In this document: in pieces, positions 10,666 through 11,466 of the stretch | How positions within the stretch are numbered: the first letter of the stretch is position 1 | Layout: the number at the start of each line of letters is the position of its first letter | Origin: Chlamydiota bacterium | Lineage (GTDB): Bacteria > Chlamydiota > Chlamydiia > Chlamydiales > SM23-39 | DNA length: 12,246 bases | Reading direction: 5' to 3' | NCBI GenBank assembly: GCA_050049995.1 | Contig: JASFVE010000058.1 | Span: forward strand, 1-12,246 | Made by a program: the position numbers and the translations under genes | The notes under the pieces: model-generated | What the model saw: only the letters and a program-made list of their open reading frames with translations | Told to the model about the DNA's origin: nothing | Database searches by the model: none

Positions 10666-11466
10666 ATGACGGCACAATATGTTAATGTAAATAATGATGG
10701 AGATGCACTTTCTCTCCCTAGTTTTGATGGCCATTACGACGACTCTTCTACTGAAGCTTCTCAACCTGATCAAAATATTCCAGATATTTTTGAACAGCAA
10801 ATGATGGAGTTTTTATGCACTTTGTCATATCAAGGGGCAAAATACTGCAAAATACAAGAAATGAGAACCACTCTTTTAGTAGAAATACAAACTAGAGAAA
10901 ATCTCAGCACTGATCCTAGTCTAGTGGAGAGATTTCAACATGTTGGTGACATACTGAATCAAATTGCACAAAAAATATTAGCTGCAAATCATACAATAGC
11001 TCGAGAGCCTTCCAATGAAAATCTATTTATTTTTTCCTTCGATGAAGAAGATAATGAAACTATTGTTGTACAAGAACTCATAGAAGGGACAGAAAAAAAA
11101 GATAGTATAGTTCAAGCCTTTCCAACTTCTCAAACTATCTCTAAGATCTCTATAGAGCAAATTAAACAGTGTGTAATAAATATGTCGGGTAGTGGTGAAA
11201 AGTACGATAAAATAAGAGCAATGAGAACTATACTATTATTAGAAAAAAAATTTTTAAGCCCCAACATTGAACCTGAGATGAATGAAGCGCTTAACATTTA
11301 TCTCCCCATATTTAATCAAACTGTAAAAAAAATACAAGAAGCCTGTCAGGCAAGAGGAATTCATCCAAAAGATGATACTCCATATATTTTTTTCTATGGC
11401 AGGGATAATCAAACTATTGTGGTGCGAGAAGGCGAGAAAGAAAAAAAAGTTTGCGTTATTCAATAG
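10666..11466 (+). CDS. Hypothetical protein with a tandem duplicated ~100-aa domain and a C-terminal CaaX motif (CVIQ)
   Basis: 266-aa ORF with SD-like AAGGA upstream; internal repeat with an offset of ~118-120 aa; ends EKEKKVCVIQ-stop. Confidence 0.85.
   Translation: MTAQYVNVNNDGDALSLPSFDGHYDDSSTEASQPDQNIPDIFEQQMMEFLCTLSYQGAKYCKIQEMRTTLLVEIQTRENLSTDPSLVERFQHVGDILNQIAQKILAANHTIAREPSNENLFIFSFDEEDNETIVVQELIEGTEKKDSIVQAFPTSQTISKISIEQIKQCVINMSGSGEKYDKIRAMRTILLLEKKFLSPNIEPEMNEALNIYLPIFNQTVKKIQEACQARGIHPKDDTPYIFFYGRDNQTIVVREGEKEKKVCVIQ

Follow-up and report, generated by a model that had tools for sequence, protein, structure and literature searches.

According to the available text of a 2026 paper, the reported cases of host prenylation come from Legionella and Salmonella only (PMC13423502), and further sources for a comparison with the CaaX effectors of these organisms are, as far as their accessible parts go, PMC7542358 and PMC13081727. 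AnkB and the Pel/CMP effectors of the intracellular organism Legionella pneumophila are Dot/Icm substrates with a C-terminal CaaX box which are farnesylated or geranylgeranylated by the host. The accessible sections of PMC2916131 describe how CaaX proteins receive a prenyl group, are then cut back through Rce1 and carboxymethylated through Icmt; they also state that the box of AnkB alone sends a cytosolic protein to membranes. SifA and GtgE of Salmonella combine a type III secretion (T3SS) context with a C-terminal CaaX box for membrane targeting (excerpts of PMC4951486 and PMC13423502). Both are geranylgeranylated by GGTase-I.

K-Ras4B has a canonical FTase-type box in addition to a polybasic run and a GTPase domain. 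Chlamydial Inc proteins are characterized by a bilobed hydrophobic domain. Al-Quadan 2011 is said to list 56 CXXX proteins. We found no report of a chlamydial CaaX effector in the literature; in-silico lists (PMC2916131 Table S1; Al-Quadan 2011) may include chlamydial candidates, and Table S1 covers, according to the available text, 20 pathogens and an endosymbiont.

The window analyzed here, the whole stretch of 12,246 nucleotides, is contig C58 of the genome G000 of a Chlamydiota bacterium (1.88 Mb, 122 contigs, 35% GC, 98% complete). It encodes a protein of 266 residues with the C-terminal end CVIQ, in the following called the CaaX protein. As in Legionella, several unrelated CaaX proteins are present in the same genome, and the combination of ankyrin repeats with a CaaX box also occurs in the chlamydial loci L027 and L052. 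In contrast to the Legionella effectors, which belong to another phylum, use a T4SS and are lipidated, the chlamydial protein is accompanied by T3SS genes, is devoid of a recognized F-box or ankyrin domain, contains a tandem domain without library match and is so far a predicted target of lipidation. The T3SS context is shared with SifA and GtgE, but CVIQ points to farnesyltransferase instead of GGTase-I, and no Pfam or PDB sequence match links the protein to these two effectors. The original prediction had compared the end with K-Ras4B. This comparison was confirmed for the box and had to be given up for the preceding lysines, which alternate with glutamates (REGEKEKKV) and contribute to a net charge of only +1 over 15 residues. 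Since both a polybasic run and a GTPase domain are missing, stable plasma-membrane targeting is not predicted. Like the Inc proteins, the CaaX protein could be exported by the T3SS and act at membranes of the host, but with a maximal 19-residue hydropathy of 0.5 it would use a lipid added by the host. Its placement as a putative member of the class of host-prenylated effectors, with an unassigned domain and with evidence of a wider chlamydial repertoire, is well supported. With a probability of about 0.7 we consider it a T3SS-secreted effector which would be farnesylated on Cys263 by a eukaryotic host and so tethered to host membranes.

The gene and its product

The features of the locus are as follows (positions in the window, all on the + strand).

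10657..10660, +: AGGA, Shine-Dalgarno-like, 5 nt before the ATG
10666..11466, +: candidate CaaX effector gene, 266 aa; open reading frame with dN/dS of 0.12-0.17 against genome G001 and an intact syntenic orthologue in locus L179
10666..10776, +: polar N-terminus, residues 1-37, predicted to be disordered (pLDDT <50 for residues 1-38); putative signal for type III secretion
10777..11091, +: repeat domain 1, residues 38-142, modeled as three helices and a beta-hairpin; 34% identity to domain 2
11131..11436, +: repeat domain 2, residues 156-257, fold as domain 1 according to alignment and single-domain model (pLDDT 84)
11431..11451, +: flexible mixed-charge linker (model and charge count), not polybasic, no second Cys nearby
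11452..11463, +: CaaX box C-V-I-Q with Cys263, of the farnesyltransferase type according to sequence, homologue conservation and the tetrapeptide kinetics in the available part of PMC3017772
11464..11466, +: TAG stop, which sets the Cys at position -4; same stop in G001
11480..11515, +: terminator-like hairpin, 14 pairs with T-rich tail, between the CaaX gene and the convergent gene, presumably for a P-type ATPase

The open reading frame at 10666-11466 is a real gene under purifying selection which evolves moderately fast, because comparison with the same-genus genome G001 revealed a dN/dS of 0.17 for codons 1-199 and of 0.12 for codons 190-266 (two G001 contig pieces, each compared on its own). 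The neighboring desaturase gene showed a value of 0.02. This 5' neighbor (Pfam FA_desaturase; 9438-10562, + strand) carries at its C-terminus an extension of about 110 residues which is charged, probably adopts a helical structure and is strongly conserved in G001. The convergent 3' neighbor is, judged by its sequence, what we take to be a heavy-metal P-type ATPase gene. A search for terminator-like hairpins yielded 2 sites compared with 0.5 +/- 0.8 in shuffled sequences. Two other genes of the window also lack a Pfam match: a protein of 174 aa (4743-5267, - strand) begins like a signal peptide, ends with Phe and resembles a small outer-membrane beta-barrel, and the product of 2565-3311 (- strand) is conserved with 35-40% identity in other chlamydial MAGs.

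The codons TGC GTT ATT CAA at 11452-11463 are followed by TAG and terminate the tail EKEKKVCVIQ, so that the C-V-I-Q end noted for the 266-residue frame can be read directly from the sequence. The assignment of Cys-aliphatic-aliphatic-Gln to the substrates of farnesyltransferase also held, and the exact tetrapeptide has been measured: in plant farnesyltransferase kinetics with a basic-domain reporter CVIQ ranked first among four tetrapeptides, the kcat/Km values of the Arabidopsis PFT being 8.9 for CVIQ, 5.3 for CVIM and 0.5 for CVIL, whereas PGGT1 used CVIQ at 0.07 of CVIL, which marks it as a poor GGTase-I substrate (PMC3017772, available part).

The CaaX protein is acidic (pI 4.7), soluble and without a transmembrane segment (Kyte-Doolittle means over 19 residues do not exceed 0.5), and its N-terminus reaches only the 67th percentile of the proteome in Ser/Thr/Pro/Asn content. 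It contains a tandem duplication, with 34% identity between residues 38-142 and residues 156-266 (blastp E 1e-12). The conserved residues of the repeats sit on the second helix, which in repeat domain 2 is basic-hydrophobic (Y180, K182, I183, R184, R187, T188, L190, L191 and E193). AlphaFold2 modeled the full-length protein with a mean pLDDT of 65 (3 sequences) and low confidence at residues 1-38, 140-159 and 258-266; a single domain reached a pLDDT of 84 (5 rows). The repeat domain has no Pfam match above the cut-off, the weak matches to DUF5884 and Germane being under it, and searches in NCBIfam, the ESM Atlas and Foldseek (PDB and viral sets) provided no identification. No F-box, ankyrin or LRR domain was found in the protein with Pfam and NCBIfam, and no paralogue in G000. 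The best matches in a PDB sequence search were designed helical proteins only, and VIA-align retrieved only generic helical bundles for the single domain (best Z 6.0, rmsd 4.7, 73 aligned) and for the full length (best Z 7.8, rmsd 4.0, 102 aligned); such scores of models do not demonstrate a function, nor do they establish the fold as new.

Repeat 1, which is not terminal, lacks a Cys where the box would align, a point in favor of the farnesylation reading. Its corresponding segment is LIEG. Aliphatic residues are located there anyway, as would be expected if the CVIQ end were structural or incidental, such as a beta-strand at the terminus or a Cys engaged in a disulfide, and the protein, whether it stays inside the bacterium or is secreted, never received a prenyl group. 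The cysteines of chlamydial envelope proteins are engaged in disulfides, and this counts in the same direction. We nevertheless regard such an incidental end as unlikely, since the tail residues 258-266 are predicted to be disordered (pLDDT <50) and neither a signal peptide nor a hydrophobic segment was found in the protein.

Relatives of the protein and the position of the cysteine

Among 40 relatives, 39 genomes had no match to the CaaX protein and G001 was the only one with a match. The G001 piece and the database entry P0006, located at L179, are essentially one sequence (88-93% identity, box CIIQ); L179 contains the intact syntenic orthologue, which is 88% identical and ends with KKTCIIQ. 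A scan of 1.84 billion representatives additionally revealed P0002, a single-domain protein of 171 aa with 43% identity over repeat domain 2 and the tail KAKSSCVIQ, and no other genuine homologue; a third match, P0003, was spurious and driven by repeats. The domain profile had no match in the 399 other genomes of the phylum that were scored, profile searches of proteins of 42-300 and 301-2000 aa and a search of viral contigs identified no further homologues, and no contig with the DNA context of P0002 was found.

Every identified relative in which the C-terminus is covered, three in total from two independent lineages, has kept the Cys at position -4. The prediction that homologues retain this residue was therefore borne out, with CIIQ in G001 and P0006/L179 and CVIQ in P0002. 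In P0002 the linker is shorter and different, and the box is still terminal across an indel of three residues. The small number of homologues could be counted in favor of an incidental end; the Cys exactly at -4 in spite of the linker indel argues against it. The label orphan, also part of the original prediction, does not apply in the strict sense: judged from these alignments, the protein has rare homologues and contains an internal duplication.

Three orthologue pairs of G000 and G001 differ in one box residue each (CVIQ/CIIQ, CIVQ/CVVQ and CSVM/CSIM). In every case V and I are exchanged at one of the positions a1 and a2, and both C and X are unchanged.

CaaX ends in the genome and in the family

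To count CaaX ends in G000 we used 1718 genes from an ORF caller written for this analysis and a canonical motif that was defined after inspection of the CXXX list. The genome-wide count against random expectation, which had been proposed as a check, showed an excess: 8 of the 1718 genes have a canonical CaaX end, compared with 1.6 expected from the internal and 1.2 from the near-terminal background (p=3e-4 or lower), and 0-2 were found at each of seven shifted positions. Without the LRR family the count was 7/1659 (p=0.001). Cys at -4 alone was not enriched in G000 (24 versus about 21 expected). The eight proteins comprise five orphans, one LRR protein and two proteins with housekeeping functions, namely an aminotransferase and an efflux protein of the outer membrane. 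Chance CaaX boxes do occur, because two of the eight matches are housekeeping proteins, and the presence of such ends on housekeeping proteins of G000 is another point in favor of an incidental end in the CaaX protein. The other four orphans are mutually unrelated, and their N-termini are in the top 12% for Ser/Thr/Pro/Asn.

C49:10875-11339, -: orphan with CIVQ; box kept in G001 as CVVQ
C29:17294-17551, +: orphan with CCSVM; box kept in G001 as CCSIM; the adjacent Cys could be palmitoylated
C13:18427-18903, +: orphan with tail GTKGGCFIQ; no G001 match; a single distant homologue in 100 genomes, without box
C10:17803-18132, -: orphan with CIIL; the G001 orthologue stops before the box

CaaX-like ends also occur in the F-box-like/LRR family (4/59 with Cys at -4; CITL, CEIF). 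They were set aside as evidence: they may be a repeat cap, because a paralogous fragment has the same end segment with Cys at -5. One of these 59 related genes is located in the window (5446-7296, + strand); its end CDNC is a non-canonical CXXX.

The family-wide analysis included 79 genomes of the same family, each at least 85% complete. The pattern C[VIM][VIM]Q followed by TAA or TAG, a search confined to this CaaX type and these two stops, gave 78 matches, and the same motif shifted by one codon from the stop served as control (68 raw matches). Before counting, one duplicate test match and six control matches with a stop as spacer codon were removed. Matches cut by contig ends (three test, one control) were scored as misses, and an ORF was considered gene-like if it started with ATG, was at least 50 aa long and was unshadowed by a longer frame. 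Under these conditions 14/77 test matches were located at ends of gene-like ORFs in comparison with 0/62 in the control (Fisher p=2.6e-4 for 79 genomes that are related by descent). Outside the genus that prompted the analysis the numbers were 10/72 and 0/59 (p=0.002); about 0.7 real gene ends are expected from the internal frequency, a rough figure from 4 events which assumes about 1500 genes per genome. The ten out-of-genus ORFs are spread over six genomes and include two ankyrin proteins, one HAD-like protein, one beta-propeller and six without convincing Pfam match (two of 59-62 aa). The ends of the beta-propeller protein L095 and of the short L096 may be due to chance. The excess is specific to Cys at -4, absent at -5, and occurs in unrelated proteins of the family, which argues against an incidental end. 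A comparison of the raw pattern count with a reversed-pattern control (78 versus about 27) was rejected as evidence of enrichment, because most matches are out of frame and the shifted control itself has 68 raw matches.

Several of the loci with CaaQ ends are of interest on their own. Ankyrin-repeat proteins without a listed F-box match end with CVVQ in L027 (214-1506, - strand; genome G141) and with CVIQ in L052 (1504-2457, - strand; G150). G150 also encodes intergenic micro-proteins of 59-62 aa with the end CVVQ in L074 (1873-2058, + strand) and L076 (1854-2030, + strand). The product of L098 (33-611, - strand; G146) with the end CIVQ is HAD_SAK_2-like (E 2e-5, under the cut-off) and could be a membrane-anchored phosphatase effector. 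In L063 (593-2040, + strand; G333) three adjacent small orphans share similar MASSV/MTSSV N-termini, and the CaaX box (CIVQ) is present on the last one only.

Host association, proposed mechanism and meaning

A free-living organism without T3SS or T4SS had been named as an argument against the prediction. G000 encodes SctV (TIGR01399, 878 bits, cut-off 692) and a fragment of an SctJ-type ring protein (159 bits, cut-off 162) within T3SS gene clusters, as well as three full-length TLC nucleotide transporters. Judged by its genes, the source organism is not free-living. No match to an [FeFe]-hydrogenase was found in this genome. The 59 LRR-related genes of G000, some with weak F-box matches, recall the expanded effector families of the Parachlamydiaceae (PMC4209131), and the words caax, farnesyl or prenyl do not occur in the available text of this source. 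Taken together, two attempts to refute the reading as a host-farnesylated, membrane-anchored effector on the level of sequence failed, and this putative function is supported.

According to the mechanism we propose, the disordered N-terminus would direct the CaaX protein through the T3SS, host farnesyltransferase would attach a C15 lipid to Cys263, and the farnesylated end would then be trimmed by Rce1 and methylated by Icmt. The lipidated protein would be located on the ER, on the Golgi or on the side of the inclusion that faces the cytosol, and not stably at the plasma membrane, because a polybasic run and a nearby palmitoylation cysteine are absent. Endomembrane placement in the absence of a second signal is known from Ras targeting. 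Since no catalytic fold was recognized, the two helical repeat domains may act as a protein-binding adaptor.

It is rather improbable that the protein is host-prenylated but uses the lipid mainly as a handle that prenyl-binding proteins recognize or as a competing decoy for the prenylation pathway of the host, or that geranylgeranyl is added by the host enzyme instead. The lack of a second membrane-targeting signal would agree with a handle or decoy, as would the size of those CaaQ proteins of the family which, with 59-62 aa, leave little room for a cargo domain; in the CaaX protein, however, two folded domains are under selection, and in characterized bacterial CaaX effectors, as far as the available texts describe them, the lipid serves membrane targeting. 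Among the Legionella Pels, some are substrates of both transferases (PMC4951486, available part), whereas the Gln at position X disfavors GGTase-I in the plant data (PMC3017772, available part). We give hardly any credence to a modification by a prenyltransferase of the bacterium itself: Reclusachlamydia socialis has 15 proteins with a protein prenyltransferase domain (bioRxiv 10.1101/2024.11.28.625222, available text), but the PPTA (prenyltransferase alpha) repeat PF01239 has no match in the 98% complete G000, and the modifying enzyme would accordingly have to come from the host.

Returning to the reading as a host-farnesylated effector, we lean towards the view that in environmental chlamydiae CaaQ tails of the farnesyltransferase type evolved repeatedly and independently on unrelated orphan, ankyrin and micro-proteins, that they provide, besides Inc proteins, a second, lipid-based placement of T3SS effectors, and that the tandem-domain protein founds a new effector domain family. 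If confirmed, host prenylation of effectors would extend to the Chlamydiota, with a new cargo domain. The CaaQ end would be an effector marker for uncultured chlamydiae that requires only sequence and has a low background (0/62 in the shifted control), which is useful as T3SS signals are hard to predict in these organisms, and a signal of only four residues can be tested at low cost in yeast or amoebae. The CaaQ tails would also be evidence that these metagenome-assembled chlamydiae inhabit eukaryotic cells with a CaaX pathway.
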